A DNA stretch of 64,000 nt from positions 64,001 to 128,000 of IMG/VR virus record IMGVR_UViG_3300005098_000017, one strand, 5' to 3'. Positions 7,602 through 64,000 of this stretch are shown here, piece after piece; within the stretch, counting starts at the first letter, position 1, and each line of letters begins with the position of its first letter. Source of the stretch: a virus. The notes under the pieces were generated by a model that was not told the origin of the DNA, ran no database searches, and saw only the letters and a program-made list of their open reading frames with translations. A program made the translations under genes and the position numbers.

Positions 7602-8068
7602 TATTCCTCATAAACATTTTGTGTTGCCCAATACCCTAAACAAATAGCATCTGCTATATTATGGTTATCTATCTCCTGTCCTGATAGCTCAGACGCGAGC
7701 CTCATAGAATAACGTTTGCGATCAACACGTTTTGTCTGTGACGAACATTGCAATATATTTGTTTGCCATGTCTGGGGTTGCACAACCACAGGAATCCACC
7801 CATTACATTCAAAAATTGTTGCAATAGAAGCCCGCACCTCAACCAATCTTTCAAAAGTTAATACATTTCTCTTACTTGCCCGGGGATGAAGCCATTGACC
7901 TTCTATAACAAGCACCCGCGTATCTTTATCATATGTTGTGGATAGCTTGTGCATTTTATCCAAAAATTCTTCATCTCTTTCAATTAAACCCCAGCTTTTC
8001 AAGCGTCCATCCTCCCATATACTATAACCAATACGTTTCGTATCAGGATCAATAGCTATAATGATCAT
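7601..8068 (-). CDS. RuvC-like Holliday junction resolvase
   Basis: IIAIDPD, VIEGQ, PQTWQ, HNIADAICLG. Confidence 0.85.
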   Translation of the reverse strand: MIIIAIDPDTKRIGYSIWEDGRLKSWGLIERDEEFLDKMHKLSTTYDKDTRVLVIEGQWLHPRASKRNVLTFERLVEVRASIATIFECNGWIPVVVQPQTWQTNILQCSSQTKRVDRKRYSMRLASELSGQEIDNHNIADAICLGYWATQNVYEE

Positions 8069-21930: not shown

Positions 21931-21931
21931 T

Positions 21932-48900: not shown

Positions 48901-51714
48901 GCTATGGGTGCATTAATAATGGGTGCTGTTAATAAAATGTTAGCGCCATTTTTGCCTGATTTAACAAAGAGTTACGATCAGCTGAAGAGGATATATAGAG
49001 GTGAGGAGTATGTGCCTGTAAGGAGAGCAAGGTATTGGCCTTTATCTTTAACCCCTTGGGAGGGTTATGATATTGAATATTGGCGGCCTTCTCTATGGTT
49101 CATTGTAAGACAGCAGGCAAAATATACTCCTGATATAAGTGGTAGCAAGATACAATCCTTATTACAGGGTGATTGGTTATTTGGATTTAATCCATTGCGT
49201 GCATTTGATCCATATGCTAAAGAGAGGCAACATTATTTCTCTAGGCCGGCGCCTCTCACACAGTTGCCATTTTGGGATGTGCCAGTTATAGGGCCGTTTT
49301 TAGCTTTAACTGTTGGGCAGGTATTGAAACCACAGCAGATGATGCATACAGCCTTTTTGAAGGAGATGTATCCCGGTGAGTATGGTGTGCCGAAGGGTGA
49401 AGTTGTCACACCGGAGGATTTATCTAATCCTGATCAATATGTATCAGCTATGCAATCCAATCAAGCTGTTGCAATGTTAATGAATAGATATGCGGGGCGG
49501 GCTTACAGGCATGTCACAGGAGATATGCTTAATAGAGGTATAACAGAAACTCTGTATAGATCGATGGAGATGGCGGGCTTAAGAGGTTACCTAACATCGT
49601 TATTATTAGGAACACAGACACCGCTTAATTTCAGTAGGTACCTAGAAATGTATGGTGAGAACGAAGGGTTTTTATCTGAATACTGGAACATGGAACTTAA
49701 TGATGTAGCTGGTGGGTTATCTGAGATGATAAGAAGATTCCGGCCTGACAAGCGGATAAATACAGTTAACCCTATCCCCAACCTTATGGCACAATTTTTA
49801 CCCGAAGGAGAGTATGGTGGTAGCGATTTTCTACATGGTGATCCTTATACTAAAATTCCTATGGGTTTCATAAGATTGCCGGGGACTGGATATGAGGCAA
49901 CACATAATGTAATGCATACATTTCCTGCATCGTTAAGAATGTTGGGTAAGACAGTAACAGAGATAAGGGACATTATGGCCGGGTGGGAGGATATTATTGA
50001 GGAGAGAACGGAGCGGGAGCTAAATAGATTTTATGATGCTAAGAAGATTGTGCAGGGATTGCTTGAGATATCAGGACAGAATGTTGAGATGGATGTGCAG
50101 ATTTACGATCCATATAACAACATTGTTGGTACCGTTGATGCAGTTGTGAGGAGAGGGCGATTTAGGCAACCTATTATTATACGTCCTGTTAGTGAGGAGG
50201 AATTTAGGGAGCTTGTTGCCCCGAAGGAGGAGCATGCGAGTCAGGTAAATTTTGCTATGAAGTTTTTTGGTGCGAAGACGGGTAAGTTGATTTATGTGAA
50301 TGTAAGATCGCCTGAACAGATTAAGACATATACCATCTTTTTTGATCCATCAAGGTTAAGAGAGGATATAAGTGCATTAAAGAGGGCGAGGGAACAGGCT
50401 GGTGAGTTGTTAAGGGCAGGAGCTGTTTTTGATTATGGTCGTAGTTATAGCTGGTTTGATAGATATAGAATTTTAGCTGATGTTGCTCCTTTATCTGATC
50501 AATATAAGCAGGCGCGTGCTATTATATTGAAGCAATTGCAACAGGGATTTTTGCCACCTGAGTTATGGGATGAGGTGCATGAGATTGAGCGAAGGCGGCG
50601 GCTTCAGCTTTTAAAATATCCTATGTATGTGCGTCGTTTTACTGGTGAAAATGTTGTTGAAACGGTGCAGAAGCTTTTGCATCCGCCCAGGCTTTCCGGC
50701 AGGGAGTTATCGCTATCTTTGAATCCATATTTAAGGTCGCCTGATGAATACAGTTTACCAGAAAGGATCGTAGGTAGTATCTGGGAGACATTTACACATT
50801 TACCAACACCTTATAATAGGAAATTCTTTTTCCAGTACTCACCGTCAGAGATTTATAAGTATTTCCATTTATATGATCGGGAGTATAAAGCATGGACGCG
50901 GCCTATTGAGGATTGGGTTAAGCCGCAGGTTAGGACGATGCTTGCTTCACAAGGCGTAATGGAGGGCGTGGCTTCATGGGCTACAGCAGGTTATGCTGTT
51001 GGTAGGTTATACGGCGGGCTTATAGGTGCAGTGGCTGGATCCATATATGGGTTGATACCTAAGCCGCCGATGATACCGGAGGATGTGGAGAAGGCGCGCG
51101 AGGCTTATTCGTATTATGATAAATTGAAATATGCACGTAACATGCAGTTTTATGTTATGACAGGTAATAGAATATATGAGGAGCGTGCTGAGCGGACCTT
51201 ATTGGGTGCGAAGAACTTACGTGATTATGTAAGAGCATTACCACGTTTTGAGCGCCCATTTACTGTAGCGTTTATGAACATAACTGATGAGAGTGAAAGA
51301 GAAAGGATAAGGCAGATTATATCACCTGAGGCGCGTCGTGCCTTGGATGCAGCATGGGCGAGACGTGAATTGCGGTATAGTGTTGAAGAAGGTGGTTATG
51401 AAGAGGTACCGAGAACACCAGCTAATTGGGCTGGTTGGATTTTTGCGATACCTGATGAGGATATTTATGTGAAGGAGCTTGAGCAGCGGGGTGTTGATCC
51501 TCTAGATTTTGGTTATGGTTATCATGGTCAGGCAGCTGCTGTACGCCGTCTATCTGAAGATTTTGCTATACCTGATCAGACGGTAGATGTAGTCAATATT
51601 ATGGATGTACAGGAAACAATAGTCAGGTCATTGCAGGCGCAGGGTATTAGTGCTTCTGTATCCATCATGGGATTTGATAATAGTAGAAGAGTTGATGTCG
51701 TTATTTATAAATAA
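45883..51714 (+). CDS. Giant virion protein (1943 aa), tape-measure position, with TM segments and a degenerate PD-(D/E)xK domain
   Basis: Basic helical N-terminus, hydrophobic Gly/Ala segments, IVGTVDAVV...PIIIR...HASQV...GKLIYV. Confidence 0.65.
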   Translation: MTVVRRNKPFLFQSDLARIRTDETLRSRYGWGRTLLRFGVAMASFAVLSYGARSLSRAWRALATSGALSRKFVEGVKVVKKLGLEQGNLLDVILSVSRRARRVAYKYVKWSQDYRDASRLLHFGKALRKIWSGGKASLKGFRKAREAYRRVGLRGALFGAFLRGAERGVGFAILSSAADALTHSFITPADREKTRKYGPVARVKRFFTDAVLFSGLQGLWGVSKVAFPTYIHRYSPQIQRFLTRIGAPTYVAKFYGWRRRFYDYLIRAIEYKQKFTQKLQGANIWQHIKQQMKEHPGLGAIATYLREQIREAHLHAKKSFRRPGGFPPRSGYDTVITMMNYAKEVNVKDPKFAAEIAAQAVGRYKGVSKWRRLLNIERERLTKKQAVAFREMLEKMGFSKSWIETLKGEERKFYENLYYRVMRGPLFHGPGWFEVAGQKFSQYETRYFVKRILQNLYAGRWRGVTRILASAAGLDLYANRRPVFIFHPTMDIPMSVPIPTDEGVRMLRLVTERGNDRVRHGIVFLQNKLYRLSPTEEGGEYFVDRVIENVKLYESPAYNILKRELTQYYIKQRRRTDEIGLRPPGEYVRDIIRKLSRGVDKASLEELVNVYKSTRSTAHIIFGKLLSKKEVREVASQILEQLGASRAQRILQMDEASLIRELEKVIEKPAQVTERLRNKFIYLINASRSRMRTMKDLLNQEFIGSGYAEARARHVIESFLIEQHLTPEIRAKFFSRLAEEQLIGKWIRKPAYTHFFKALAELAPVEMDAEALRSTIKGALNDIVVGWKKLPTVDPFRPISALFQYGGLGIHRLFEPTIEGIRVMGTTVPFTVVREGMSPFKRYTVTSLLFSHHLRRIWGFMDYVSKAPRKFPIIRHLLRRLDPRLADTAHIFPFETNTTGWTASDMIKNLWKPAATLLALGVGYKAVDTFFDESGLFEGTALGEGLTPAILDAYALGRLSLARVLDIAGVTDAARYLEGLMPGSMTWLPGALYGVWKFAPAGPAASAMGALIMGAVNKMLAPFLPDLTKSYDQLKRIYRGEEYVPVRRARYWPLSLTPWEGYDIEYWRPSLWFIVRQQAKYTPDISGSKIQSLLQGDWLFGFNPLRAFDPYAKERQHYFSRPAPLTQLPFWDVPVIGPFLALTVGQVLKPQQMMHTAFLKEMYPGEYGVPKGEVVTPEDLSNPDQYVSAMQSNQAVAMLMNRYAGRAYRHVTGDMLNRGITETLYRSMEMAGLRGYLTSLLLGTQTPLNFSRYLEMYGENEGFLSEYWNMELNDVAGGLSEMIRRFRPDKRINTVNPIPNLMAQFLPEGEYGGSDFLHGDPYTKIPMGFIRLPGTGYEATHNVMHTFPASLRMLGKTVTEIRDIMAGWEDIIEERTERELNRFYDAKKIVQGLLEISGQNVEMDVQIYDPYNNIVGTVDAVVRRGRFRQPIIIRPVSEEEFRELVAPKEEHASQVNFAMKFFGAKTGKLIYVNVRSPEQIKTYTIFFDPSRLREDISALKRAREQAGELLRAGAVFDYGRSYSWFDRYRILADVAPLSDQYKQARAIILKQLQQGFLPPELWDEVHEIERRRRLQLLKYPMYVRRFTGENVVETVQKLLHPPRLSGRELSLSLNPYLRSPDEYSLPERIVGSIWETFTHLPTPYNRKFFFQYSPSEIYKYFHLYDREYKAWTRPIEDWVKPQVRTMLASQGVMEGVASWATAGYAVGRLYGGLIGAVAGSIYGLIPKPPMIPEDVEKAREAYSYYDKLKYARNMQFYVMTGNRIYEERAERTLLGAKNLRDYVRALPRFERPFTVAFMNITDESERERIRQIISPEARRALDAAWARRELRYSVEEGGYEEVPRTPANWAGWIFAIPDEDIYVKELEQRGVDPLDFGYGYHGQAAAVRRLSEDFAIPDQTVDVVNIMDVQETIVRSLQAQGISASVSIMGFDNSRRVDVVIYK

Positions 51715-54700
51715 TGGCAGTTATAAGGAAAAAACATACATATTTGCGTACTTTTACACGCAGGAAGGAACGGGAGAAGGGCAACCGTTTTGCGAAGTTT
51801 GGACTGGGGGTTGCTGCTCTTGTGCCTATTGTTTATTTGGTCAGGGGGCGCGGCTTCGAAAGGCTACATGATTTTCTTAAGACCTTTGCTGAGGCTTCAT
51901 ATAAGAAAGAGGCGCGGGCTTCAGAAGCATCTCTATGGGCGTATGGGCCTCTTGATAGGATAAAAAAGGCATTCATGGATAATCCATTTTTGTCAGTACT
52001 GGGTAATGTTACCAAAAAAGAGGCACAGGGGAGATCTGTAAGGGAGGTATTGAATAAGTTAAAAGATATTGTTGAGCTTCTGCGTGAATATTATTCAGTA
52101 GCTGAAATAAGAAAATTATTTAATGAGGATATTATTCCTTATGCTGATAAAGCGTCTAAGCTTATTGTTGAGGAGGAGAAGCAATTAGTATATAAGTATC
52201 AGTTAATGTTTGAGCGGGCGCTTAAGATTCTCACGAGGAAGATTAATGAAAAAGGGTGGCTTCCGCGAGACCCATTTCATTTTCGTCTCCTAAGTAAGTA
52301 TTTACCACATAGCTACAAATTTGGATTGTTTTATGGTACGATGCCGAGTTTTTCGGCGCCTCTATTTGAGATTTCTACAGCTAGTGGGCAGTTTGCACAG
52401 ATTTTCCAAAGGGAGGTAAAGAATCTATCAGAAAGTGAGGTTTTACTTGGTCAACATGTTGAGCAGGTTATAAAAGATTATGTAAAAAAGCATGTGGTTG
52501 TGAATCCTGAGTGGGAGCTTGCTGCTAGTGAGGTGTTTAAGCATCTATCAGCTGAGGAGCATTTACAGGTCCGAAATCTTGTTACAAGAATTACAGAGCA
52601 GGTAGCTAAGTGGTTGCATCGTCATGCCGGTATTGATGCAACAGATTTGCCTGATGTGCATGTTGTTATAAAGGCGCAGCGTTATTATGATGTTCCTATG
52701 CTAGTTGCTCAGCTGTCGGTTGTTGATCTGCGTGGGGTCAAAAGGAGTATAGAGATCAAGCTTGGTGTTCCCCAGAAAAGTGGATTGATGGCAGCTATAG
52801 GAAATTATCCAACAGCAAATGTCAGATTTGCTCAAGGTAACAGGGTAAGGTCGATCTTTTCCTTGAAGCTGGAGCGCTTAGGCGAGATGTTTGAGCATGC
52901 CTTGAACGATTTATACGAAGGGAAGTCAGAGGATTATGTTACCAGACGCATTCATAGAATCATTGGACGATATGATTTATATGGAACTGGGCGTAATGAT
53001 AAAGCATTCCAGTTGGTGCATTCCATTGTTGATAAGGACTTTAAGGATTATGCGGCTTATAATGCTAAAAAGAGATTTTTGAAGCGCGCCGCTGAGTTGG
53101 TGCTTGGTGTGAGAAAAGGTAAGTATCGGGTGTTTATGGATGCTGAGTGGGTTATGGCTGGTATATCGAGTACTGGGACTCAATATGCAGTGACTGAATC
53201 CCGCCGGCGCTTGATATGGAGTTTTGCCATACAAGTTTTTGATGATCTTGGTAATGAGGTTGATAAGTTGGTTGTATTTATAGATCCGAAGACGATAAGC
53301 GATGAGTTCTTCATGTCGCAGGTGCGTCGTTTTGGATTATCAAAGGCAGCTGCTGAGGAGGCATTAAAAGCGGTTAGAGGTCGTGTTGCGATGCCTGCTG
53401 GATATGTCAGAGTTGATAGTGAGATGGAGGCCAGCCGGCTTATATGCAAGAAAATAAAAGACATAATTAATAAATATGGTAAGGATGATCTACTTGTTAT
53501 GGGTAAGAACTTCTGGAGCTCAGAGGTTGCATTGTTGGAGCGGGCCTTTAAAGCTGACAGTAATATATTAAATTATATCAAAAGAAAGTTAGTTGATATA
53601 GAGGATATATATAGGTTGGTATATGGTGCTAAGGCTATTAACAGGTCATTAAGTGTTGAGGCTATTCTCGATTATGTAAAGGTATCGGATGAAGGATCGA
53701 AGCTATTGGGCCGGCTTCTTAATTATGAACCGAGGGTTGAGGTCCAAGCGTTTGCTAATTTAGTTAGGTCGCTACATTTTGGTGAGCAAGATAACAGGAT
53801 TGCATACATCCTATCAAAAATTGCGGAGAGCATGGTTAATAATGATCCTGAGTTGCGTGAGAGAGTACTAAGGATTTATGATATTGTAGCGAAGTCACAG
53901 GGAGCTGTTTTATCATTTACAACGCAGCAGGAGTTCATGCAGCGGGCTTATAATTATGTAAAGGAGCAATTGAAATCTGTTGGTGTTGGTTCGCCTAATG
54001 CTGCGCGTAAGTGGCGTTTTGAATATCCGTTTAATCCAGCTGATTGGGTTCCGCTATTTGTTCCCACCTTGGAGAAACAGAGGTATCAGTTAGGCCGCGG
54101 CTTACCTTTATCGGAGGCATCGAAAAGATTGCTTGAAACTCTTAAGAAGGAATATGCTAGGCGCGTATTAGGGTTGGGTGAGGCTGATATCAATTATCTA
54201 GGACCGGCGCTTATTTCTATGCCATTTAAGAGATTCCTAGAACAGCAGATGTTATATAATGTCCGTAGTGTATTTACGATACCTGTCTTCTCAACATTTT
54301 TCCCATTTGCTGGCGAAGGACATATGTTTATACACAGGAGACTTACTGAGCTATCGACAGTAGTGCAGGAGGTGATTAGTCAGAAAATTCCGATAAGTAG
54401 GTTGGAGAATATGGATGCTCGTATGCAGTTGTGGGCGAAGCTTTTTGAATCTGCCATGGAGGCTGTTAAGACATCTCCGAAGCTGGGTGAGTTAATTAAG
54501 AGCAAATTTAATAATGATATTGTTAAGTTTTTGAGAGCTGTAGATTTGTCGATTGTTATTGGTAGATATCGTGGATGGATAAAGGATTCTGAGCGGTTGG
54601 CTAATGTTTTAGCGCAGTTGTTTCCGGGGTTTCCTATCAAGCGTTTTGTTGGTCATGCTATTGGTAGGAATCTAAGAGGTCTTACTATAAAACAGTATAT

Positions 54701-57700
54701 GGCATTGCGCCGCGGTGTGCGTGCACCAAAAATAAATTTGGGGGATATATGGAAGGAGATATTTAGCGACAAAGCAGCTGCTCATCCGTTATACGACATG
54801 TTGAGTAATGATAATATGTTGAAACTTGGATTGATGGATGAGTCTGCTCAGGCAGGTTATGCACAATGTGCATTAATAAGGGAGATCTTTAATAGATTGG
54901 TAGAATCGGGGCTTCATCTTACCAACCCAGAGCAGTACATCAAGTATGGTACTTTCGTAATGACGGACCGGCTTCAGCTTGGTGATAAGGTTGTAAAAAT
55001 TGGTTATAATGGTAAATTGGTTTTTAATAAGGTAATTACATCTTATGATCTTACAGGTATACCTTCATTAGATTTTTCACTTACCTATGAGATAGTTTTG
55101 CCAACCCCCTTAAAGTGGGTTACATATTATCAAAAAGGTATGGGGACAGCACAGCGCTGGTCCTTAAGTCAATTTCCGTATTATCTTATAGAGCCGGCAC
55201 GTTTTATGGAGCGTGGTGAATTGGGCATCTTTATAGAGACAGAGATGACCCGGCTAAAGGAGGCATTAATTAAAAAATATGGTGTGCGGGAAGCCGCCAA
55301 TGTTATGTCAAAGATGACAAAGGACCTCAATGATTATATGAATAGAGTGGTTAATTACGCTATTAAGGAGCACGGGCTTCCCATCAAACTTACCAGTCCG
55401 TTGTTTATATTCAATCCCAAAATGATGGCAATAGAGGGCAATTATGATTTGTTTAACACATTGACAACAGAACAAAAGGGATTATTGTGGACAGTATTTT
55501 TGGAGGGTTTACCTGAGAAGGTGGGAAAGATTGGTGGATATCCAAGCTTGTTTGATTATCTTGAGGCTAAATTCAAGGAGCATGGTATTGTTGTAACTCC
55601 CCAAGAAAGGAGGATATTCAGAAGATATGTACAGAAACAATATGCGTTGTATAAGAACAAAAAGATAAGCGAAAAGGAATTTTTTGAAACAGTCTTGCTG
55701 AAGGACATAGCTGATGAGAGGATACGAAACTGGTTTAGCAGATTATATTATGGAGATGATAGGGAGCAGCTGGCGCGCTTATTCGATATATATCAGATAA
55801 AATTAGGTAAAAGGGTTGTTGAACTTATTGGTTTGGGCCGTCATAGCCCCTTTGGGTTGGGTGATACGGCTCTAACTAGTACCTACAAAAGTTTTGTTCG
55901 TATACCAATGCAGATGTATTGGGATATCCATCGCTGGCCTCATTTGGAGGGTATGGCTCAATTTATTGATGCCTTCCAAGCTCAGAATCTACCTATTTAT
56001 GAGACACTTCTTAAGATGGCTGATATGCTAAAAATGAGTCAGTCATCTATTGATGAGTTGGTGAAGGCAGGGGGTATCTATGCTGTACCGGTGCGGCGCT
56101 TCTTTGACTTTGTGCGCAAACATATGAATCTTCTTAGGTCAATAAGGGAGGATATATATGTACCAGAAAAGATATTAGAGGAGGCTCATGGTGATATGGT
56201 TCGTGCTGTCCAAATGATGCTTGATCTGGGTGTATCGTTAACGGATTTTAAGGAGAATGCTATAAAGTTTGAAGGCGCGCAGGTCCGTGCGCAGGTTGCC
56301 AAGGAGGTGCAGGATTTCCTCAGACAGATATTTGAGGAGGCGCAAGGGAAGCGCGTTGTTATCGATGTAGGCAGGGCAATGTCTGTTTCCTATAAGAACC
56401 TTGAGTCGATGATTGGTCAGAATGATGCTATTATTAGGGATCTTATAAAATATTTAGAGAGAATGGGTTACAACAAGCTGAAGTATATACCATTGGGGAC
56501 AAGGGAATTTTGGGATCTGTCATTTCACCAGATTGGTAGAGACCAAGTTATTGTTGAGCCTCAGGTTAAGAAGTTGCTGCAATTAATGGCATCGATTGCA
56601 TCAATTAAGGGTAAGGTGCAAGCAACTGGTGTGCCATCGGCGCAGGTTAAATTTGAAGAGAGAAATGTATTTTATAAGCAGTTTGTTAATTATCTTGGTT
56701 CTATAGCTAGTAGCTTTATAGGCCGGCAATCCTTATGGGCACGCACTGCTGTAACACATCTTCCTGGTGTTGAGGGTGTTGGACTTCCGTCCTTCTTGCT
56801 TTTTAATAAGTCGCGGCTTCTTGACACAGTTGTATGGGAGCCATTTACGACCTATGTTGATGCTTCTGTTATTGAGAATCTCAGAGGTATGTTGGAAGCC
56901 GCCGGCTTCTCCAAAGAATTTATCGATGCTTTTTACAAGGGTAGTCCTAATGTAGCATTTTTAGGTATGCCCGGACGTATGCCATTCCACCCCGGTATGG
57001 GATTGATAGGATTTATAAAGAGTTTAACCAAGCAGCAGAAGAAACATGTTTCATCTGTAAGCGATGCTGTTAAAATATATATGGATCCTTTATTGATAAC
57101 GAAGGTTCTATTGGGTGACTGGGATACAGATAGATTGATGGCGTTACTAACAATGACATCTCCGAAGGGTGCTGAGGATATAACAAGGATATGGAAGTGG
57201 GTCTATGGTTTATCAGATCAGGATGTTGCATTTCTTATGTCGTATGGTAAGTTTAGAGCTGGTGACAGGAAGGCTATAGGTGAATTGCAGACATTTTTTA
57301 CGTCTGTTTTTGAGAAGATGACAAAAGAGCAGAAGGAGGCATATATACAGAGCAAAGAGTTTGAGGATATGCTCCACAAAAGATTATCAGCCATTGTTGC
57401 AAGAATGAAGGAAGGATATTTGAGCTGGTTTGGTAAGTCTGAGGCAGAAGAGTTAAGCGAGCGGGTCGAGTTTTTAGTGACAGGTGATGTGACGAAGATA
57501 CCGACAACGGAGGGTAAGGTTATTTATTTACCGACTATATTAGCGCAGATGCGTGGTTATACGATGAAGATTGAAAAAATGTGGCCGTTTATACAGGAGG
57601 CTAAAGAGATTGCGAGGAAGGAAGGAATTCCATTCAAGGAGGCGTTAGCTAAGCATATGGCTGACGTTTTTGCTAATAGGGAGCTTAGGAATGTACTGGG

Positions 57701-58775
57701 TACATCGATGGCTGGTAAAGCTGATGTGATAAGAACAGGGTATGCATTAGCATTGCAGCATATATATAAATTAAGAGCTGAAGGGCTTTCATATCAGGAT
57801 ATAAGTAAGATCATGGGATTAAGCATTCCAGAAGCATTTGGTCAAGTATTTGATAAATGGATGGCGGCGGGTTCTGAAAGACAGAAGATGATTCTCACAT
57901 TTGAAAGGGAAATACTCGATAAGGTATTAAAGATGAAGCGTGGTGGTTCTCCAGAGGCGATGGCTGAAGCAATAAATAATCTTGCTAATGAGTTGCTGGA
58001 GTATAGTAAGGTTTCATCATCTGTTGCGAAGAAAGGACATGAGTTAATAGATAAATTTGTTGCAGAAATTGATTGGGAGAAGATGGGATTGAAGCCGCGT
58101 GATGCTTTATACATGATGGGGTGGTTATTAAGAAACACGCAATGGACTATCCGTAATTCCAGTTATCTTGTTACGAGACAATCGATAAATAGAGGTCTTA
58201 TTGAAGCATATGCGATGTTTGCATCCCGTTTGCTGAGTCAACCGACGGGTCCTACGGTAAGCCCGACATTGTTAGATGCATTGTCGGGTGAGGTATTAAG
58301 GGGCATGGCAAAGGAGCCGAAGCCATTGAATGAATTACTTGGCGAGCAAACAGCAAATATGAGGTTTAGGGAGGCATTGGCGGGCTTCCTTACAAAAACA
58401 TTTGAGAATTTATCTAAATCAAGAAAACATAGATTGCTATTAGCAGGTGCATTGGCTGGGATAGCGGGATATATATTAAGCGGGCCGAAATTAAGAGGAG
58501 ATATATTTTCATTTGGTATCGATATAGGCACAGTGCATGGATTGGAGCCGAGCTTCTTTGATGGTAGATGGACATACCCTGAGTTGCCCCGAGGGGAGGA
58601 TATAAGGGGTTTGGAGAATCCATATCATAAAAGGAAAATTTATATTCTACGTAATATAAGGCGCAGGAACCCTGCATTATTTAATGAGTTAAGGAGGCGC
58701 GGTATAATTCAAGAGTGGGAAATGTCGGCGCCTTATGATTACCCACGCAGAGAAAGGAAGGTGATCTATGTATGA
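51714..58775 (+). CDS. Giant protein (2353 aa): putative single-chain two-barrel RNA polymerase with an N-terminal DEDD exonuclease-like domain
   Basis: Colinear GEGHMFIHRRL, KWVTYYQKG, GRMP and MDP...LGDWDTDRL motifs; exonuclease-like MDAEW/GKN/HFGEQD. Confidence 0.65.
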   Translation: MAVIRKKHTYLRTFTRRKEREKGNRFAKFGLGVAALVPIVYLVRGRGFERLHDFLKTFAEASYKKEARASEASLWAYGPLDRIKKAFMDNPFLSVLGNVTKKEAQGRSVREVLNKLKDIVELLREYYSVAEIRKLFNEDIIPYADKASKLIVEEEKQLVYKYQLMFERALKILTRKINEKGWLPRDPFHFRLLSKYLPHSYKFGLFYGTMPSFSAPLFEISTASGQFAQIFQREVKNLSESEVLLGQHVEQVIKDYVKKHVVVNPEWELAASEVFKHLSAEEHLQVRNLVTRITEQVAKWLHRHAGIDATDLPDVHVVIKAQRYYDVPMLVAQLSVVDLRGVKRSIEIKLGVPQKSGLMAAIGNYPTANVRFAQGNRVRSIFSLKLERLGEMFEHALNDLYEGKSEDYVTRRIHRIIGRYDLYGTGRNDKAFQLVHSIVDKDFKDYAAYNAKKRFLKRAAELVLGVRKGKYRVFMDAEWVMAGISSTGTQYAVTESRRRLIWSFAIQVFDDLGNEVDKLVVFIDPKTISDEFFMSQVRRFGLSKAAAEEALKAVRGRVAMPAGYVRVDSEMEASRLICKKIKDIINKYGKDDLLVMGKNFWSSEVALLERAFKADSNILNYIKRKLVDIEDIYRLVYGAKAINRSLSVEAILDYVKVSDEGSKLLGRLLNYEPRVEVQAFANLVRSLHFGEQDNRIAYILSKIAESMVNNDPELRERVLRIYDIVAKSQGAVLSFTTQQEFMQRAYNYVKEQLKSVGVGSPNAARKWRFEYPFNPADWVPLFVPTLEKQRYQLGRGLPLSEASKRLLETLKKEYARRVLGLGEADINYLGPALISMPFKRFLEQQMLYNVRSVFTIPVFSTFFPFAGEGHMFIHRRLTELSTVVQEVISQKIPISRLENMDARMQLWAKLFESAMEAVKTSPKLGELIKSKFNNDIVKFLRAVDLSIVIGRYRGWIKDSERLANVLAQLFPGFPIKRFVGHAIGRNLRGLTIKQYMALRRGVRAPKINLGDIWKEIFSDKAAAHPLYDMLSNDNMLKLGLMDESAQAGYAQCALIREIFNRLVESGLHLTNPEQYIKYGTFVMTDRLQLGDKVVKIGYNGKLVFNKVITSYDLTGIPSLDFSLTYEIVLPTPLKWVTYYQKGMGTAQRWSLSQFPYYLIEPARFMERGELGIFIETEMTRLKEALIKKYGVREAANVMSKMTKDLNDYMNRVVNYAIKEHGLPIKLTSPLFIFNPKMMAIEGNYDLFNTLTTEQKGLLWTVFLEGLPEKVGKIGGYPSLFDYLEAKFKEHGIVVTPQERRIFRRYVQKQYALYKNKKISEKEFFETVLLKDIADERIRNWFSRLYYGDDREQLARLFDIYQIKLGKRVVELIGLGRHSPFGLGDTALTSTYKSFVRIPMQMYWDIHRWPHLEGMAQFIDAFQAQNLPIYETLLKMADMLKMSQSSIDELVKAGGIYAVPVRRFFDFVRKHMNLLRSIREDIYVPEKILEEAHGDMVRAVQMMLDLGVSLTDFKENAIKFEGAQVRAQVAKEVQDFLRQIFEEAQGKRVVIDVGRAMSVSYKNLESMIGQNDAIIRDLIKYLERMGYNKLKYIPLGTREFWDLSFHQIGRDQVIVEPQVKKLLQLMASIASIKGKVQATGVPSAQVKFEERNVFYKQFVNYLGSIASSFIGRQSLWARTAVTHLPGVEGVGLPSFLLFNKSRLLDTVVWEPFTTYVDASVIENLRGMLEAAGFSKEFIDAFYKGSPNVAFLGMPGRMPFHPGMGLIGFIKSLTKQQKKHVSSVSDAVKIYMDPLLITKVLLGDWDTDRLMALLTMTSPKGAEDITRIWKWVYGLSDQDVAFLMSYGKFRAGDRKAIGELQTFFTSVFEKMTKEQKEAYIQSKEFEDMLHKRLSAIVARMKEGYLSWFGKSEAEELSERVEFLVTGDVTKIPTTEGKVIYLPTILAQMRGYTMKIEKMWPFIQEAKEIARKEGIPFKEALAKHMADVFANRELRNVLGTSMAGKADVIRTGYALALQHIYKLRAEGLSYQDISKIMGLSIPEAFGQVFDKWMAAGSERQKMILTFEREILDKVLKMKRGGSPEAMAEAINNLANELLEYSKVSSSVAKKGHELIDKFVAEIDWEKMGLKPRDALYMMGWLLRNTQWTIRNSSYLVTRQSINRGLIEAYAMFASRLLSQPTGPTVSPTLLDALSGEVLRGMAKEPKPLNELLGEQTANMRFREALAGFLTKTFENLSKSRKHRLLLAGALAGIAGYILSGPKLRGDIFSFGIDIGTVHGLEPSFFDGRWTYPELPRGEDIRGLENPYHKRKIYILRNIRRRNPALFNELRRRGIIQEWEMSAPYDYPRRERKVIYV

Positions 58776-58939
58776 AAATTATAGTTAGAGTATCACCAAA
58801 TGCAGATATTGTTCGTGTTGAAGCGGCAATACGTAATGCTTTGATGGCGTATGATTTAGATGTACGGTCGATACAAGTGGTAACAACAGCTTTCGGACAG
58901 GAGGAGTATGCCAGAGGACCCGAAAAAACCGAGGCTTGA
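58772..58939 (+). CDS. 55-aa hypothetical protein
   Basis: Hand translation MKIIVRVSPNADIVRVEAAIRNAL...; ATGA overlap with the upstream stop. Confidence 0.6.
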   Translation: MKIIVRVSPNADIVRVEAAIRNALMAYDLDVRSIQVVTTAFGQEEYARGPEKTEA

Positions 58940-61900
58940 TTACAGGACAGCTATTATAGGTACTGTTCCTGTGATTGTTACAGATTTTAGAGTTGTTGAG
59001 AATTTTTCCTACCAGCAGATACAGACGCTACGTATGGATAATAATGTTATTTACCAGATACCCGGAAGGAATTTGTATGTTATTATTGGATTAGAATTTC
59101 CTGATGGTTATTCCATTAATACAGGACTGCGTGAGCTCCATGCCATGATGTTTCTTGCTTCCATTGTACCTATTTATAGTCCGTGGCTTAATGACATGGT
59201 TATTGCATCGTTTGATCAATATAGAGGGCTTGCTGAATTAATGGGTGTTAATACAGATGTAAACATTTATGCATTGCGTCGTTTAACGATGAGATCTGTT
59301 GAGTCGCCTTATGCTATTGGTGTTGAGATGGAGATTGCTCCCATGGATTTAGATGCGGCGCGGCTTAAACCCCAATTCCTTGTGGATGAAGAGGCAGCGC
59401 GGGCTAAATCTGAATTTATAGCGAGGTTGTTTGAGTTATATGAAACGATGAAGAGAAGTGAGGACCCGCTGGCTTATTTGGATGGCTTTACATCTATCTA
59501 CAATGATTACAAGAGGGCTGTTGCTAATAAGGTTGTCGACTTCCTATGGCAGTCAGAATTATTTAAAAGGTGGATAAGCATAATATATCCTGAGGGTGAT
59601 AAGTCACTTTTACCAGTTCAAGGGGTGCGGCTTAAACGGCAGCTTGGTATATGGAGACAAACGCCATTTGCTAATATTGTTATTCATTATCTTCATATGG
59701 CTGATGATATCGTATCGTTGCGAGATGAAATCCATAAGTATGTTTCAGATGTGGCTAGTAGTACAGCGAAAATGATCCGTGATTATGTAGCTGATTACGA
59801 ACAAATTCAGCAGGTTGGCGCGCCTCGACGATTTTTTCAAGTATTACAGACATTATATAATAGCATTAAAGGTGGCATACGCACCCGTGTTGATAGTTCA
59901 TTAATGGGTACTATAGCATTTGGCAATCAGATAAGAGAGATGTTACTTGAGGTTGCATTACGTATGGATAATGGGCAGAGAGGTAAGTTTACTAACTATG
60001 TGCAAAGGATTCTATCTCTGACGGCGGGGCCTAATCTAGTAGTCCCTGAGATGATGATGGAAGGTGAATCAGCTATTGTTACAATGTCTGATTTTCTTAC
60101 TAGATTTTTTGCGGAATTAGGTAAGAAGTTGGATACGGATTCATACAAAATTTTTGTTGATTTATTTGCTGATGTTATGTCTGAACGTATTGCGTATTGG
60201 GAGTTGTTTTCAAAGGTGATGAAATATGAGACATTTGATTTTGGTAAGTATCGTGCTACTCCAACCAGATGGGAATACACTGTGACTAATAAATTTGTAC
60301 CTCTGAGGATTGGTGATGCAGTAGCTCCCTTGTTGCAACATCTTGGTACTGACAGTCCTATATTTAGGGTGCAGTATGCATGTGGTGATGGTCTGGCCAT
60401 AAGGCAGCTAAAACAGTTAAGAGATGATGTTGATAAGGCTGTGCAACAGATAAATGAAATAGGGTCATATTTCCCTTGGATTACGAGATATATAGAGCCT
60501 ATAATATTATCCTCAACGGACGGCTTAATTGAATTTCTGGGCATGCAGCATGCGGTTTTAGATTCAGTAAGTATTAATCCGATGGAAGAAGCCGCGATGG
60601 TTGCTGAGGCTACATGTACATTTGTTGCCTCTGATATAACGATTTTTGATTACGAGCAGTTTGAGTTTGCCGATACTGTTGGTGCCAATAATTTATCATG
60701 TCTATTATTATTCTATGCATTGCGTAAATGGTACCAGGAAATTTTTGGCAAAGACCTTCCTCCGAGTGGTACTGTTGCAGAGACGGTGCAGCCATTAAAG
60801 GAAGGTGAAGATATTTCGAAGCTAAGGATTCCGTTTAAATTGTTTGATGTTATGGATTCACAGAATGTAACGAAGCGTGCATTTCAGTATGCGATGACAT
60901 TATCCAAAGCTGAGAATCAGAATTATTATAACTTCACTATCTATAATTCAGATAAAAAGGCTGTATATGCATTAAATGAGGGTGTGGTTACTAACGTAAC
61001 TAATAATCTGGTTGATGGTTATATAGTTCGTGTGAAAAACGGTGATTTTGTAACGGAGTATAGGAATCTGGGGAAATTGGCAGAGGATATTAAGCCGGGC
61101 GAAAAGGTGTTGGGTGGACAATATTTAGGGGAGGCGCGCTTCTTTGCTAGTGGAACATATCCAACCGAAGTACAGGAAAAAGAAGTTAAAATGCTACCTA
61201 ACCTATTAGGATTAGGGGTGCCTGAGGTTGTTCAAGAATACAAGAAGAAAGTAAAAACATCTGGTCCTGCGCCTTATGGGGTGTTTATATTATTTATGTA
61301 TAAAAATATTCCATTGGACCTAGAAATTTATAAAGGTAAGGAGGTTTTTGAAAAAGCAGCTAATATATCTGCGCCCACAGATATATATGCATATTTTTGG
61401 ACCCATACTAAGGATGATAAAATAACATGGGCTGGGCATACCTATGATGTGAAAAATAATCCTTATGTCCAAGGATATGTAAATAGTGTCTTAGGTGGGA
61501 TACCTATTTTAGAATCAATTTCGAATCGTGTTTTTGATGAGAAGACATTTTTTGATGTCCTTATTCGATTACTGATGGAGAAATGTATGACATGTGTATC
61601 GTCATTTGATATTGCTGGCTTGGAGCAGAAACTTGCAAATGAATTGGGTATGGAGCCGGCTTCTGCAACTGATAAAGCTGTTCCAACACAGGAGGAATAT
61701 GTGCCCGTTCTTGGCCGTCCATACTTTACCCACCCATCATTGGAAGAGATGAAACTACCAGAGCCACAATTACCTCCTAAGGTAACTCCGGCACCAGAGG
61801 AAGGAAAAATGGAAGTACCTGAGGAGAAAGTAGAGAAACCGCAGCTTTCTGCACCAAAAGAATTACCTGAGGAGGCCCCGCCAGTAGAGGTGCCGCCTAG

Positions 61901-64000
61901 TGAACCACCAATGATAGAAGAAGGTGAAAAAGAGGAGGGTGATCTTTTAAATAGACTCATAGCACGTTACATGGCGCTTGTATCGCAAGATATGAAATAT
62001 TTACAGCAGTTACCACCTACCCCTATAGTTGATATGGAAGCGGTGCCTACTGATGATGAACTTATACATAGGAGAAATAGTGGTTTATGGGAGCATTTAA
62101 AGCAGCATTACACAGAGTTTGTAAAATTGGAAGCTGTATTGTCACAGAAATTTGGTGATGAATTCTTTAAGGATTTTGATGAACGGGTAAAAGCTGAGCG
62201 TGAGGAATTACGGAAACTAGAAGGTGGTGGATTATACCGTTGGGTTGTTGCAGATCGTTACCGTGAAATAATTAATGATGAATATGTGACATATGGTATA
62301 CCGTGGCAAAGTTTGAAGGATCAGGCACCCTTTGATGAATTGTTGCCATTGATAAAACAGAGACATGCTGTTGTTGTCAGTCTTATGAGGAATTTATTTG
62401 AACTGGGGAAAAATTCTTCTGAACGTGATTTCTGGGCCGTGGCTTCTTCAAGATTTGAAAATAGGCTGTCCTTCTTTAACAATGGTCTTGATCAGATTGC
62501 TGCTGAATACGGTGATAATTCAATGGAGATAATTGAATTTTATGATAATGCTTTGGTGAAGGAGCAGGATTATTTATCAGCTCTCGAAGAGGCTTATGAG
62601 AGTCAGTTGGTTAGAGAGGAAAAGAAAGAATCTATAGAGAAAAAGGATATGCCATCCAGTACTATACCACCAGCTGGTACTCCAAATCGTCTGCCTGAGT
62701 TAGAAGCAAAATATAAGGAGATCATAGGATATGAACGAGATCTATTGGAAGCGGCACAGGATTTAAAAGATCCTTATTGGAAGAATGCATTGGAGGAGTT
62801 TAACAAGCGTGTGGCTAATTATGAGAGGGATATTGAGGAGGCCGCGGGCCCAGATTTAGAAAAAATTTATGAGAATGCTATAGCTTATGAGACAATGATG
62901 CTTGATAATTATAAGACCAAATATCAGAAGCAGAGGGCTATTGGAGATTATACGAAGCCGCCAATGCCCCAGCATGTGGCGCCGGTGACGGTTCCGAGGG
63001 CTAAACCAGTAAAACCACCTACGGAAATTGTTATTCCACCAGATGAGGTAGAGATGTGGCGTGAACTGTTAGATTTTATGGCTGATAGCTATATTAGGGG
63101 TAATTTGTTTAAAGATGTTGATTTGGTAAGTAAGATAGATGCAAATGATATAGATGGGTCATTTAATGCTATTTTATCACAGATAGCATCTTCTCATATG
63201 GAATTAGATAGTGTAGATGCTGTTGCTGTGCATATAACAGCTAGTGGTCCAGCAAGTGATAATTTTATTGGAGGTTGGGAAAGATTAGCTAGAAGTTTTG
63301 ATTTACAGGGTGGTGTTGAGAAAGCTCGACGTAAGCATAAAGGAGCATATAGTATTTATCATATATTAATTGGTAATGGTTTTATAAAACATTATCGTGA
63401 TAAAATTCGGGGATTTGATTCTAAATATGATGGTTTGATTATGGTATGCCGTCCATTGACACAGATGGCGAATCATATTGGGGGATTGAATCGTCAATCT
63501 ATTAGTGTTGCATGGGTTGGTATGCCATTTATGCAAGTTCTTAGGAATAGTCGTGCATGTAAATATCCTATACAGACAGCTACTCCATTTCCTCATATAG
63601 GTTTTTGGGAATATGTGATCGAGCCGGCATATCAGTCGTTGCTAAGAGAGCATAAGCCGCCGACTTATACTGCTTTAAGACAGAGGGCATTTGAAATATT
63701 GGATGATAATGGTTGGATAGAGCCTCCTGATAAAAGTATAAATAGTCAGGTTGTGGCATTTACAAATGAGTTTTACGATAAAGTGCCGGCTTATGACTTT
63801 ACTCATTATATAGCGAATGGTGGGGTTATAACATGGCCGAGTTGGGGAGATTTGCTACAGGGTGGTAAGATGAAAATAGATGCACATGCAATACCGGGGA
63901 TAGGAGAGCGTAAGAGTGGTATATGTGTAAGCAAGATAGGGGGTAAATTTGCTCTTAAATATATTTATGGTATGAGTCCGCGTGCTTGGGATAGATTAGT
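58908..64000 (+). CDS. Giant virion protein (>1690 aa, runs off the window end) with degenerate M23 domain, Pro/Glu linker and Amidase_2-like domain
   Basis: ATG after GGAGGAG; same frame read at 60.9 kb (AVYALNEGVV...IKPGEKVLGGQYLG) and 63.2 kb (VAVHITA...YHILIG...DG...RP...HIGGLNRQSISV); absent from the track, consistent with no stop before the end. Confidence 0.8.
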   Translation, partial: MPEDPKKPRLDYRTAIIGTVPVIVTDFRVVENFSYQQIQTLRMDNNVIYQIPGRNLYVIIGLEFPDGYSINTGLRELHAMMFLASIVPIYSPWLNDMVIASFDQYRGLAELMGVNTDVNIYALRRLTMRSVESPYAIGVEMEIAPMDLDAARLKPQFLVDEEAARAKSEFIARLFELYETMKRSEDPLAYLDGFTSIYNDYKRAVANKVVDFLWQSELFKRWISIIYPEGDKSLLPVQGVRLKRQLGIWRQTPFANIVIHYLHMADDIVSLRDEIHKYVSDVASSTAKMIRDYVADYEQIQQVGAPRRFFQVLQTLYNSIKGGIRTRVDSSLMGTIAFGNQIREMLLEVALRMDNGQRGKFTNYVQRILSLTAGPNLVVPEMMMEGESAIVTMSDFLTRFFAELGKKLDTDSYKIFVDLFADVMSERIAYWELFSKVMKYETFDFGKYRATPTRWEYTVTNKFVPLRIGDAVAPLLQHLGTDSPIFRVQYACGDGLAIRQLKQLRDDVDKAVQQINEIGSYFPWITRYIEPIILSSTDGLIEFLGMQHAVLDSVSINPMEEAAMVAEATCTFVASDITIFDYEQFEFADTVGANNLSCLLLFYALRKWYQEIFGKDLPPSGTVAETVQPLKEGEDISKLRIPFKLFDVMDSQNVTKRAFQYAMTLSKAENQNYYNFTIYNSDKKAVYALNEGVVTNVTNNLVDGYIVRVKNGDFVTEYRNLGKLAEDIKPGEKVLGGQYLGEARFFASGTYPTEVQEKEVKMLPNLLGLGVPEVVQEYKKKVKTSGPAPYGVFILFMYKNIPLDLEIYKGKEVFEKAANISAPTDIYAYFWTHTKDDKITWAGHTYDVKNNPYVQGYVNSVLGGIPILESISNRVFDEKTFFDVLIRLLMEKCMTCVSSFDIAGLEQKLANELGMEPASATDKAVPTQEEYVPVLGRPYFTHPSLEEMKLPEPQLPPKVTPAPEEGKMEVPEEKVEKPQLSAPKELPEEAPPVEVPPSEPPMIEEGEKEEGDLLNRLIARYMALVSQDMKYLQQLPPTPIVDMEAVPTDDELIHRRNSGLWEHLKQHYTEFVKLEAVLSQKFGDEFFKDFDERVKAEREELRKLEGGGLYRWVVADRYREIINDEYVTYGIPWQSLKDQAPFDELLPLIKQRHAVVVSLMRNLFELGKNSSERDFWAVASSRFENRLSFFNNGLDQIAAEYGDNSMEIIEFYDNALVKEQDYLSALEEAYESQLVREEKKESIEKKDMPSSTIPPAGTPNRLPELEAKYKEIIGYERDLLEAAQDLKDPYWKNALEEFNKRVANYERDIEEAAGPDLEKIYENAIAYETMMLDNYKTKYQKQRAIGDYTKPPMPQHVAPVTVPRAKPVKPPTEIVIPPDEVEMWRELLDFMADSYIRGNLFKDVDLVSKIDANDIDGSFNAILSQIASSHMELDSVDAVAVHITASGPASDNFIGGWERLARSFDLQGGVEKARRKHKGAYSIYHILIGNGFIKHYRDKIRGFDSKYDGLIMVCRPLTQMANHIGGLNRQSISVAWVGMPFMQVLRNSRACKYPIQTATPFPHIGFWEYVIEPAYQSLLREHKPPTYTALRQRAFEILDDNGWIEPPDKSINSQVVAFTNEFYDKVPAYDFTHYIANGGVITWPSWGDLLQGGKMKIDAHAIPGIGERKSGICVSKIGGKFALKYIYGMSPRAWDRL

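Follow-up and report, generated by a model that had tools for sequence, protein, structure and literature searches.

Polymerases carried in the virion

Virion-carried polymerases explain how transcription of a phage genome starts without the host enzyme, and their experimental demonstration is confined to few groups, including crAss-like phages, PhiKZ-like phages and P23-45. N4-like phages are also among the groups in which a virion polymerase has been shown experimentally. In Thermus phage P23-45, gp96 is a virion two-barrel RNA polymerase fused to the tape measure protein, and gp64 is a non-virion RNA polymerase (PMC10770324). In this siphovirus the polymerase occupies the N-terminus of a tape measure 5,002 aa long. 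The Cellulophaga phage phi14:2 possesses gp66 (PDB 6VR4), a giant virion protein of 2,180 aa encoded within the structural block and flanked by giant neighbours.

The protein described here, P0001, is likewise a giant encoded among giants in a structural block. As in P23-45, a two-barrel polymerase signature occurs in a giant protein of the tail module and a small second candidate is encoded elsewhere in the genome; the differences from gp96 are a contractile tail and a signature placed within the C-terminal quarter of a 2,353-aa chain. Because a conserved beta-prime catalytic-barrel signature is located among tail genes, P0001 is probably a particle-borne transcription enzyme, and we consider it reasonably likely to be a very divergent single-chain two-barrel (cell-type) virion RNA polymerase.

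The giant gene, its neighbourhood and its relatives

The window (the whole stretch of DNA analysed, 64,000 nucleotides) derives from the genome of an uncultured 147-kb contractile-tailed phage. P0001 is encoded by a real ORF at 51714-58775 on the plus strand, with 2,353 codons and a frame open throughout. Capsid and tail genes belong to the 0305phi8-36 type: MCP, sheath and tube match myoviruses of this type. Between the tube/chaperone genes on one side and the baseplate genes on the other lie four giant genes (1943, 2353, 1797 and 1337 aa), the second of which encodes P0001. It had been predicted to lie next to the tape-measure-position protein, a loose wording for the second of four giants in the tape-measure-to-hub interval. 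P0001 matched no tape-measure family in Pfam or PHROG; it is possibly, but not necessarily, the tape measure protein.

Among approximately 15 billion proteins, relatives of P0001 occur in three lineages only, with 22-25% identity between lineages. One comprises P0001 together with P0002 and L004 (91-95% identity), the second is P0003 (22-24% identity to P0001) and the third is a split gene, L003; no other homologs were found. P0001 itself has zero sequence matches in Pfam, PHROG or PDB and no match to any polymerase in phage databases, and RNA polymerase was never among the matches of the family profiles to PDB. AlphaFold2 returned unusable models both for aa 750-1900 (pLDDT 32.3) and for aa 1520-1870 (pLDDT 37.1).

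A beta-prime-type barrel signature

Invariant columns and hhalign delineate a candidate barrel, and alignment with P0003 and P0004 its candidate metal-binding loop:

56715..57203, plus strand: beta-prime-type double-psi barrel candidate, aa 1668-1830
57117..57131, plus strand: candidate Mg-binding loop D1802-W-D1804-T-D1806

The region reads, in order, F-x-G-[RK], h-P-G-x4-G-L-P-S, a helical insert of ~45 aa, G-R1755-x-P, Y-[VM]-D-P-L and G-D-[WYF]-D-x-D, followed by a hydrophobic strand. These six motif blocks, the upstream G-[KR] and G-L-P strings included, are ordered as in beta-prime ~330-470 and similarly spaced: cellular beta-prime (RNA_pol_Rpb1_2) has G-K, G-L-P, helical insert, N-R-x-P, h-x-h-x-P-L and D-F-D-G-D in the same order and spacing as the P0001 family. 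Two of the strings singled out in the original prediction, GRMP (R1755) and IYMDP...LGDWDTDRL (D1802/D1804/D1806), were found where it had placed them, and their key residues are conserved across the deep divergence of the family: R1755, P1757, Y1789, D1791-P-L1793, G1801 and all three Asp (D1802, D1804 and D1806) are invariant in 3/3 lineages at 22-25% identity. The Asp loop reads D-F-D-A-D in P0004 and canonical D-Y-D-G-D in P0003. The DWDTD loop is present as described, and the weight placed on its 'non-canonical' character was overstated, since a homolog carries DYDGD.

The expectation by chance depends strongly on the pattern. Shuffled proteomes of this genome are expected to contain D[FYW]DxD by itself ~1.4 times each, and the filter [RK]xP-x(20,100)-DxDxD (PMC10770324), which P0001 passes, gives ~3 by chance and 5 observed in the genome. 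A strict beta-prime-shaped pattern (RxP, h-x-h-x-P-h, D[FYW]DxD), devised post hoc with the data already seen, occurred in 0/200 shuffled proteomes; its single occurrence in the real proteome is in P0001.

The beta-prime-type region opens with the G-K string, and ~10 residues upstream of it the L003 gene is naturally split into two ORFs, which fits a domain boundary at that point. Downstream of the barrel, a conserved helical block (aa ~1984-2018) lies at a plausible distance for a bridge helix/trigger loop. Within the barrel region, aa ~1690-1735 gave weak PDB profile matches to Rrf2 wHTH (E 0.007-0.28).

Profile similarity to beta-prime through Bacillus phage giants

Giant proteins in the same slot of a 0305phi8-36-type tail module were identified in Bacillus jumbo myophages: vB_BauM_KLEB27-3 gp34 (OM634661.1 35003-42307, 2,434 aa), vB_BceM_WH1 gp095 and Edson 0920 (2,515 aa). 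Here as in the P0001 family, the gene is the middle giant, preceded by sheath, tube and chaperone genes and followed by the hub/lysin gene; the proteins are 2,268-2,515 aa long and carry the Asp loop at 76-79% of their length (~77-79% in Bacillus). The Bacillus giants have R-Y-P, as in P0003, and D-Y-D-G-D. They also keep K-M-D-M-S-G-R-F, comparable to beta-prime K-R-V-D-Y-S-G-R-S, whereas the P0001 family retains only F-x-G-[KR]. In their records they are called structural or virion structural proteins, not polymerases, and a search of a literature collection found no paper naming them as polymerases.

The barrel region of the P0001 family matched these three Bacillus proteins with an hhalign score of 25.0 (P 0.0037; 0/80 shuffles; null 11.9 +/- 2.1), and the Bacillus family in turn matched 81 beta-prime sequences with 29.2 (P 7e-4; 0/60 shuffles). 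Both alignments, to the Bacillus family and to beta-prime, place R-x-P and DxDxD in register. The direct comparison of the P0001 family with the 81 beta-prime sequences was marginal (18.1, P ~0.02-0.06, equalled by 3/150 shuffles). These similarities concern one region of ~70-150 residues, and the underlying alignments contain very few sequences (Neff below 2); over the full length the Bacillus and P0001 families have no significant similarity beyond the barrel-A region. The Pfam model RNA_pol_Rpb1_2 hit KLEB27-3 gp34 at aa 1877-1944 with E 0.015, below the gathering score; on the genome that encodes P0001 it gave no match at E up to 10.

Kinship with the crAss-like gp66 was considered separately. 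The gp66 protein and its Crassvirales orthologs have R-x-P-T ... D-F-D-[IV]-D, with a fourth residue other than Gly, like the T of P0001. A tblastn search with P0001 against phages returned nothing, although gp66 finds 141 records, and hhalign remained in the noise (24/150 shuffles); capsid, sheath and tube are of the 0305phi8-36 myovirus type. An assignment of P0001 as a crAss-like virion RNA polymerase was rejected, as no homology to gp66 was detected and the module is not that of Crassvirales.

Candidates for a second, beta-type barrel

For a putative second barrel there are three candidate sites (E868 with K1134/K1141; GDK1090...NGK1101; aa 1549-1605), none statistically supported, and such a barrel did not emerge from any of the tests. 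The stretches considered are:

54297..54338, plus strand: A-E-G-h-x-F-I string (E868), candidate first half of a beta-type barrel, from the alignment; the 'FEDA'-like site of the original prediction
54981..55016, plus strand: G1090-D-K...N1099-G-K1101, alternative two-lysine candidate, from alignments and hhalign
54996..55250, plus strand: Vtc2/Vtc3 triphosphate-tunnel-like stretch, aa ~1095-1180 (range approximate), from a weak profile match
55113..55139, plus strand: LKWVTYYQKG (K1134/K1141), the two-lysine site proposed originally
56358..56528, plus strand: alternative second-barrel candidate, aa 1549-1605, conserved in three lineages, no statistical test passed

All strings proposed for the beta-like half, QRYQLGRGLPL at ~aa 789, FAGEGHMFIHRRL (E868) and LKWVTYYQKG (K1134/K1141), are present at those residues, and their conservation differs. 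In the first of them K-Q-x-Y-Q is invariant and GRGLPL is not kept; the E868 column reads E/E/Q. The Gly neighbouring E868 is invariant, and the site resembles T-F-[DE]-G-M-x-I of the Bacillus family and F-E-D-A-I of beta; hhalign against the Bacillus family gave it no statistical support. In one alignment K1141 stands opposite K and K1134 opposite R/K; in another the same stretch of P0001 stands opposite gaps. Conservation of the two-lysine site thus changes with the alignment, and LKWVTYYQKG is unlikely to be the catalytic lysine motif. Of the overall proposal, a beta-prime-type barrel in a tail/ejection-block giant, with its Asp triad conserved, is supported, and the two-lysine site was not robust.

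The GDK...NGK string fits beta G-D-K-M-A-G-R-H-G-N-K-G better than K1134/K1141 does, not significantly. NGK is found at corresponding places in 3/3 lineages and is invariant in one alignment; a second alignment pairs GDK of P0001 with NGK of the other lineages. GDK is shared by P0003, and L003 reads K-M-A-S-R-Q-P-N-G-K. The best hhalign match to E. coli beta sets GDK on GDK with P 0.29. The strings at aa 1549-1605, I-D-V-G-R-A-M-S-V-S and [KR]-x6-[RK]-h-h-h-D, just downstream of which the L003 gene is cut, resemble the barrel-B strings shown for QDE-1 in PMC10770324 Suppl. Fig. 8. For the beta-like region as a whole, hhalign against the Bacillus family was in the noise (11/80 shuffles), pairwise Smith-Waterman tests were not significant, and the Pfam models Rpb2_6 and Rpb2_7 detected no beta-type domain.

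The tunnel-like stretch stems from an unbiased search of PDB with profile A7, which gave Vtc2 (3g3o) at E 0.0026 and Vtc3 at 0.13-0.2, weak matches to a fold unrelated to RNA polymerase. They were not reproduced: Pfam VTC and CYTH were blank on the genome, as were single family members.

Terminal helices and exonuclease-like motifs

Three further features were recognised outside the putative barrels:

51798..51842, plus strand: N-terminal hydrophobic helix, aa 29-43, after a basic stretch, read from the sequence
53121..53813, plus strand: DEDDh-exonuclease-like motifs, aa ~470-700, at motif level only
58431..58703, plus strand: C-terminal hydrophobic helix (aa ~2240-2256) and conserved tail module, from the alignment

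A hydrophobic stretch comparable to the N-terminal helix is present near the N-terminus of P0003, and this helix may associate with a membrane or channel during ejection. The C-terminal hydrophobic helix, pointed out in the original prediction, is real and conserved in the family. The adjoining module, G-D-x-F-S-x-G-x-x-I-G-x-V-x-G-x-x-P-S ... W-x-x-P-E-L-P, is the best-conserved block of the family and has no relative in IMG/VR.

The exonuclease-like motifs consist of D476-x-E478, G597-K-N-F with an acidic residue five positions on, and H688-x4-D693, all invariant in alignment A5. The Bacillus giants have the same three motifs in their N-terminal third (D-x-E, N-F..D and H-F-G-x-x-D). No Pfam or PDB match was obtained for this region, and its hhalign comparison with the Bacillus family was not significant (7/60 shuffles).

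Alternative explanations

P0001 could be a structural ejection or tape-measure-like protein devoid of polymerase activity, whose conserved acidic loop binds metal or serves otherwise and whose resemblance to beta-prime arose by convergence or by chance. Searches with P0001 itself yield no polymerase, the PDB profile matches are weak and all to non-polymerases (Rrf2 wHTH, Vtc2), and D[FYW]DxD alone is frequent by chance. A polymerase is moreover not required in this tail slot, because no DxDxD at all occurs in the proteins encoded at the equivalent position in 0305phi8-36, Moorella MTATph1 and Acinetobacter ME3; gp146 of 0305phi8-36 carries the annotation 'hypothetical tape measure protein'. 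We nevertheless regard a purely structural role as unlikely, given that the invariant residues coincide exactly with the defining positions of the beta-prime barrel, that the in-register match to the Bacillus family, which itself matches beta-prime, beats 80/80 shuffles, and that the strict pattern is absent from all 200 shuffled proteomes.

Two other readings accept the barrel and dispute its task. P0001 might be a polyvalent injected enzyme that makes primers, is RNA-dependent or synthesises DNA (QDE-1-like/PolD-like), equipped with nuclease and triphosphate-tunnel modules, and not the early-gene transcriptase. The two-barrel enzymes do include RNA-dependent and DNA polymerases (PMC10770324). 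The conserved exonuclease-like motifs, the tunnel-domain match at E 0.0026 and another candidate transcriptase already present in the genome are in line with such an enzyme, which we nonetheless hold to be quite improbable: neither Pfam VTC/CYTH nor single sequences reproduced the tunnel match, and the exonuclease is without database support. Among virion two-barrel enzymes studied experimentally, phi14:2 gp66 and P23-45 gp96 are DNA-dependent and transcribe early genes, and those of jumbo phages such as PhiKZ are likewise DNA-dependent transcriptases. P0001 might also be the decayed relic of a virion polymerase, its barrel kept for folding or assembly and its catalysis lost, with the host or the 832-aa enzyme described below transcribing everything. 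The T at the fourth loop position (DWDTD) in place of G, and putative barrel-B lysines without clear conservation, would agree with decay; yet crAss-like enzymes function with I or V at this position, and the invariance of the three Asp, the aromatic residue and the preceding Gly across deep divergence argues for selection on the metal site, which renders a relic very improbable.

Proposed role and implications

Under the favoured reading of P0001 as a virion RNA polymerase, the protein would be assembled into the particle together with tail or ejection proteins; we infer this packaging from the gene position and from the annotations of the positional equivalents. During infection it would be delivered with the DNA, and the conserved N- and C-terminal hydrophobic helices may keep it at the envelope channel or inside it. 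The D1802/D1804/D1806 centre on the beta-prime-type barrel would then transcribe the first phage genes without host polymerase, and the N-terminal DEDDh-like module may contribute 3'-5' nuclease activity. Tail delivery and pre-early transcription are a working model taken over from P23-45.

Elsewhere in the genome an 832-aa two-barrel-like candidate is encoded, with V-D-G-I-F-F-V-S, G-L-K-G and K-S-P...W-D-A-D-G-D. The presence of this second, smaller candidate provides the precondition for a two-polymerase cascade (PMC10770324), and the protein could take over later, as gp64 of P23-45 does after gp96. A more extensive scenario, which we advance tentatively and with some doubt, is that P0001 is an extreme member of an undescribed contractile-tail class combining a proofreading-type exonuclease with a single-chain beta-then-beta-prime RNA polymerase, injected through the tail, anchored by terminal membrane helices and driving a host-independent cascade with handover to the small two-barrel polymerase; the L003 gene would have been re-split.

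If P0001 is a virion polymerase, contractile phages of the 0305phi8-36 structural type would also carry such an enzyme, hidden in a giant gene of the tail module, and these would include cultured Bacillus jumbo phages that are open to bench tests. The pair of a virion and a non-virion polymerase would be the second natural case. A sequence-orphan branch would be added to the tree of two-barrel polymerases, which would bear on the debate on whether single-chain forms derived from the cellular enzymes or are older than them.

Genomic setting and phage type

The virus record comprises 147,433 bases at an estimated completeness of 84%, and the window covers its bases 64001-128000. The gene for P0001 lies on the plus strand at 51714-58775, where the frame is open over 2,353 codons; all strings quoted for it in the original prediction are present. 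Four giant genes stand in a row here, coding for proteins of 1943, 2353, 1797 and 1337 aa, and that of P0001 is the second. Located 5' of these are genes for a terminase with a Hint (intein-like) insertion, a portal, a capsid protein and a 1094-aa protein with a sheath-like N-terminus, while the M23-bearing giant, the endolysin-like giant and a baseplate wedge protein follow 3' of the P0001 gene.

Features around the giant genes (L006 is a stretch flanking the window)
Window 21842-24388: large terminase gene, 848 aa, Hint/Vint-domain matches between ATPase and nuclease halves
Window 40788-44823: three successive proteins of 285, 392 and 668 aa, matching PHROG 9206, labelled 'major head protein'
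Window 58908-64000: third giant gene, 1,797 aa, M23 peptidase match (E 4e-5, below cut-off)
L006:301-4314: fourth giant gene, 1,337 aa, endolysin PHROG match

The Hint/Vint matches suggest an intein in the large terminase gene. The label of PHROG 9206 is misleading here, because its members in phage 0305phi8-36 are the tail tube and a paralog. Relatives of the capsid protein in the phage collection were confined to 0305phi8-36, Moorella MTATph1, Acinetobacter ME3 and Bacillus jumbo phages. The gene order corresponds, gene for gene, to gp139-gp151 of 0305phi8-36; the third and fourth giant genes together fill the slot of the single hub/lysin protein gp147. The phage is contractile-tailed and of the 0305phi8-36 structural type. 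Kinship with crAss-like phages, whose gp66 the original prediction cited for comparison, was dismissed because capsid and tail belong to this different type; a profile comparison with nine crAss-like sequences gave the right register at a score within noise (24 of 150 shuffles).

Elsewhere in the window, the minus strand carries genes for a ribonucleotide reductase large subunit (9016-11391), a RecA-like protein (8065-9000) and RNase HII (6888-7601), and the plus strand one for a 634-aa double glycosyltransferase (4300-6204).

Relatives of P0001

The whole protein had no relevant match in Pfam, PHROGs, the PDB (phmmer) or phages (tblastn). When residues 760-1900 served as query in an exhaustive HMMER search over 1.8 billion cluster representatives, three clusters came back: P0002 (a 91% relative), P0003 (2,268 aa, 24% identity) and P0004 (a 671-aa C-terminal piece). 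Together with three word-index searches it yielded only three lineages, and the sole addition from word-index, IMG/VR and metagenome scans was a 94% variant (L004, from the metagenome scan); scans of IMG/VR by either of two alignments or by a motif pattern turned up no relative. The atlas feature search returned solely unnamed viral clusters, one of them with 17% LPD38, or no usable match. P0003 is encoded on a 111-kb contig with the gene order seen here (683, 243, 134, 1975 and 2268 aa, two small ORFs, 1290 and 1512 aa).

In one contig the homologue is split:

L003:6349-11514: split P0001 homologue, two ORFs of 999 and 671 aa

Between these ORFs lie about 150 bases in which every frame has stops. 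The 999-aa ORF corresponds in alignment to the middle of P0003. The 671-aa ORF begins some 10 residues ahead of the G-K string with which the β′-type region opens, and about 70 residues found in the other lineages are absent at the break. The contig is only 13 kb long and its left half is in the opposite orientation; the split may reflect a natural form with two subunits, the remnant of an insertion or a fault in assembly.

A β′-type barrel signature

The signature resides in residues ~1668-1830. At 22-25% overall identity, the three lineages share as invariant G1670, P1684-G, L1691-P-S, R1755, P1757, Y1789, D1791-P-L, G1801 and the aspartates D1802, D1804 and D1806, the loop reading DWDTD in P0001, DYDGD in P0003 and DFDAD in P0004. 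The spacing in P0004 (G-R-N-P-T-L-T, 20 residues, L-Y-V-D-P-L, 7 residues, G-D-F-D-A-D) resembles that of Escherichia coli β′ (N-R-A-P-T-L-H, 17 residues, I-Q-L-H-P-L, 7 residues, D-F-D-G-D), and in every case an alternating hydrophobic strand follows the Asp loop. Aligned by hhalign with 81 proteobacterial β′ sequences, the region scored 18.1, a value that 3 of 150 column shuffles equalled or exceeded, with R-x-P, D-P-L and the Asp loop all in register. AlphaFold2 models (pLDDT 32.3 for residues 750-1900 with 3 alignment rows; 37.1 for residues 1520-1870 with 5 rows) carry no fold information.

For the helical insert that separates G-L-P-S from G-R-x-P, weak similarity to the winged-helix DNA-binding region of an Rrf2 protein recurred (1ylf, E 0.007-0.28):

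Window 56781-56920 (aa ~1690-1735): helical insert with weak Rrf2 winged-helix match

A bridge was provided by cultured phages, chosen for comparison by the likeness of their capsids. No DxDxD occurs in the giant genes of 0305phi8-36 (gp145-147), Moorella MTATph1 or Acinetobacter ME3, which rules out an Asp motif in this slot of every phage of the type. Three Bacillus jumbo phages do carry it:

L101:19004-26308 (OM634661.1 35003-42307): gp34 of vB_BauM_KLEB27-3, 2,434 aa, annotated 'structural protein', with DxDxD
L102:158-7705 and L103:263-7810: giant 'structural proteins' of vB_BceM_WH1 and Edson, 27% identical to KLEB27-3 gp34

All three contain A-K-M-D-M-S-G-R-F, N-R-Y-P-T-I-N and, at 79% of their length, K-A-D-[YH]-D-G-D; they are annotated only as structural proteins, and their β′-type barrel is unannotated. 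Pfam RNA_pol_Rpb1_2 matched KLEB27-3 gp34 at E 0.015, below the gathering score. The barrel region of this Bacillus family aligned with β′ at an hhalign score of 29.2 (P 7e-4; null 12.6 ± 2.3; 0 of 60 shuffles), and that of the P0001 family aligned with the Bacillus family at 25.0 (P 0.0037; null 11.9 ± 2.1; 0 of 80 shuffles), the register holding at R-x-P and at the Asp loop. Outside the barrel region the similarity of the two families was not significant. This profile chain, built from very few sequences and one region, is the strongest evidence that residues ~1668-1830 may form a β′-type barrel.

Candidates for the second barrel

The β-type barrel would lie upstream. E868 belongs to a conserved A-E-G-h-x-F-I string (E, E and Q across the lineages) that resembles T-F-[DE]-G-M-x-I of the Bacillus family and F-E-D-A-I of β. 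The two-lysine site originally proposed, K1134/K1141, proved conserved in one alignment and fell opposite gaps in another. Forty residues upstream of it is a string that looks more promising, G-D-K(1092), six residues, N-G-K(1101); all three lineages have NGK in an equivalent position, and P0003 has GDK too; K-M-A-S-R-Q-P-N-G-K of L003 may be compared with G-D-K-M-A-G-R-H-G-N-K-G of β. Scores for the string were not significant (hhalign P 0.29; Smith-Waterman P 0.1-0.23, other registers being favoured in two lineages), and the score of the β-like region against the Bacillus family was reached by 11 of 80 shuffles. Another candidate, without statistical support, is aa 1549-1605, just upstream of the β′-type barrel, where I-D-V-G-R-A-M-S-V-S is followed by [KR]-x6-[RK]-h-h-h-D; it recalls the barrel-B strings of QDE-1 (PMC10770324 Suppl. 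Fig. 8) and ends just upstream of the split in L003.

The only unbiased match for aa ~1095-1180 was of another kind and was not reproduced with Pfam VTC and CYTH models or single sequences:

Window 54996-55250 (aa ~1095-1180): triphosphate-tunnel match, family profile against the PDB, yeast Vtc2/Vtc3, E 0.0026

The same genome encodes a smaller protein of interest:

L005:2579-5077 (genome 50578-53076), minus strand: 832-aa ORF (P0005), ~11-13 kb before the window start

Its motifs V-D-G-I-F-F-V-S, I-G-L-K-G-I-A-V and K-S-P-I-L-P...V-H-P...W-D-A-D-G-D constitute the set tabulated for small single-chain two-barrel polymerases of the YonO/gp64/QDE-1 type (PMC10770324). P0005 had no match in Pfam, the PDB or the phage collection; by these motifs it is a candidate non-virion polymerase. 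Pfam Rpb1_2, RdRP, Rpb2_6, Rpb2_7, VTC and CYTH models found nothing in the genome at E up to 10. BLASTP of P0001 against P0005, 0305phi8-36 gp146 and KLEB27-3 gp34 was not significant, and hhalign scores of its family against the crAss family, E. coli β, P0005 and the full-length Bacillus family were within noise.

Exonuclease-like motifs and protein ends

Three strings like those of DEDDh exonucleases, D-x-E, G-K-N-F...[DE] and H-x4-D, are conserved within residues ~470-700. They recur in the Bacillus family, where H-F-G-x-x-D is among them; model and structure searches gave no support for the assignment. At the level of these motifs, the P0001 family may combine an exonuclease with the putative polymerase. 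Conserved hydrophobic helices are present at both ends of P0001, and the last ~90 residues are the best-conserved block in the family.

Proposed role of P0001

We lean towards reading P0001 as a single-chain two-barrel RNA polymerase, very divergent and housed in the particle within the tail/ejection complex. The open frame, the conserved signature, the profile chain and the gene slot were observed; fold, second barrel, packaging, ejection and activity are inferred from them. It might instead be a non-enzymatic ejection protein whose acidic loop arose by chance or convergence. In a shuffled proteome of this genome one would expect 1.4 occurrences of bare D[FYW]DxD and 3.0 of the published filter [RK]xP-x(20,100)-DxDxD (PMC10770324 supplement), for which five were seen; both are common by chance, so neither is evidence by itself. 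A stricter β′-shaped pattern, written post hoc with the data already seen, was absent from all 200 shuffled proteomes and had a single occurrence in the real proteome. With this pattern and the in-register profile chain set beside those counts, we regard the non-enzymatic explanation as unlikely.

Rather less likely still is a polyvalent enzyme whose barrel serves something other than early transcription; the exonuclease-like strings and the Vtc-like match speak for it, the lack of support for either from further searches against it. A decayed relic, to which the T in fourth place of the DWDTD loop might point, seems the least probable, all three aspartates being invariant.

As a polymerase, P0001 would be injected and would transcribe the first phage genes; the 832-aa enzyme might then take over, by analogy with phage P23-45, where the gp96 polymerase hands over to gp64 (PMC10770324). 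A virion two-barrel polymerase is a known kind of protein, of which P0001 would be an unusually divergent case; our literature search found no paper describing its family, its place in a contractile-tail module of the 0305phi8-36 type or the probable exonuclease fusion. KLEB27-3, WH1 and Edson offer cultured, testable stand-ins for this class of proteins.
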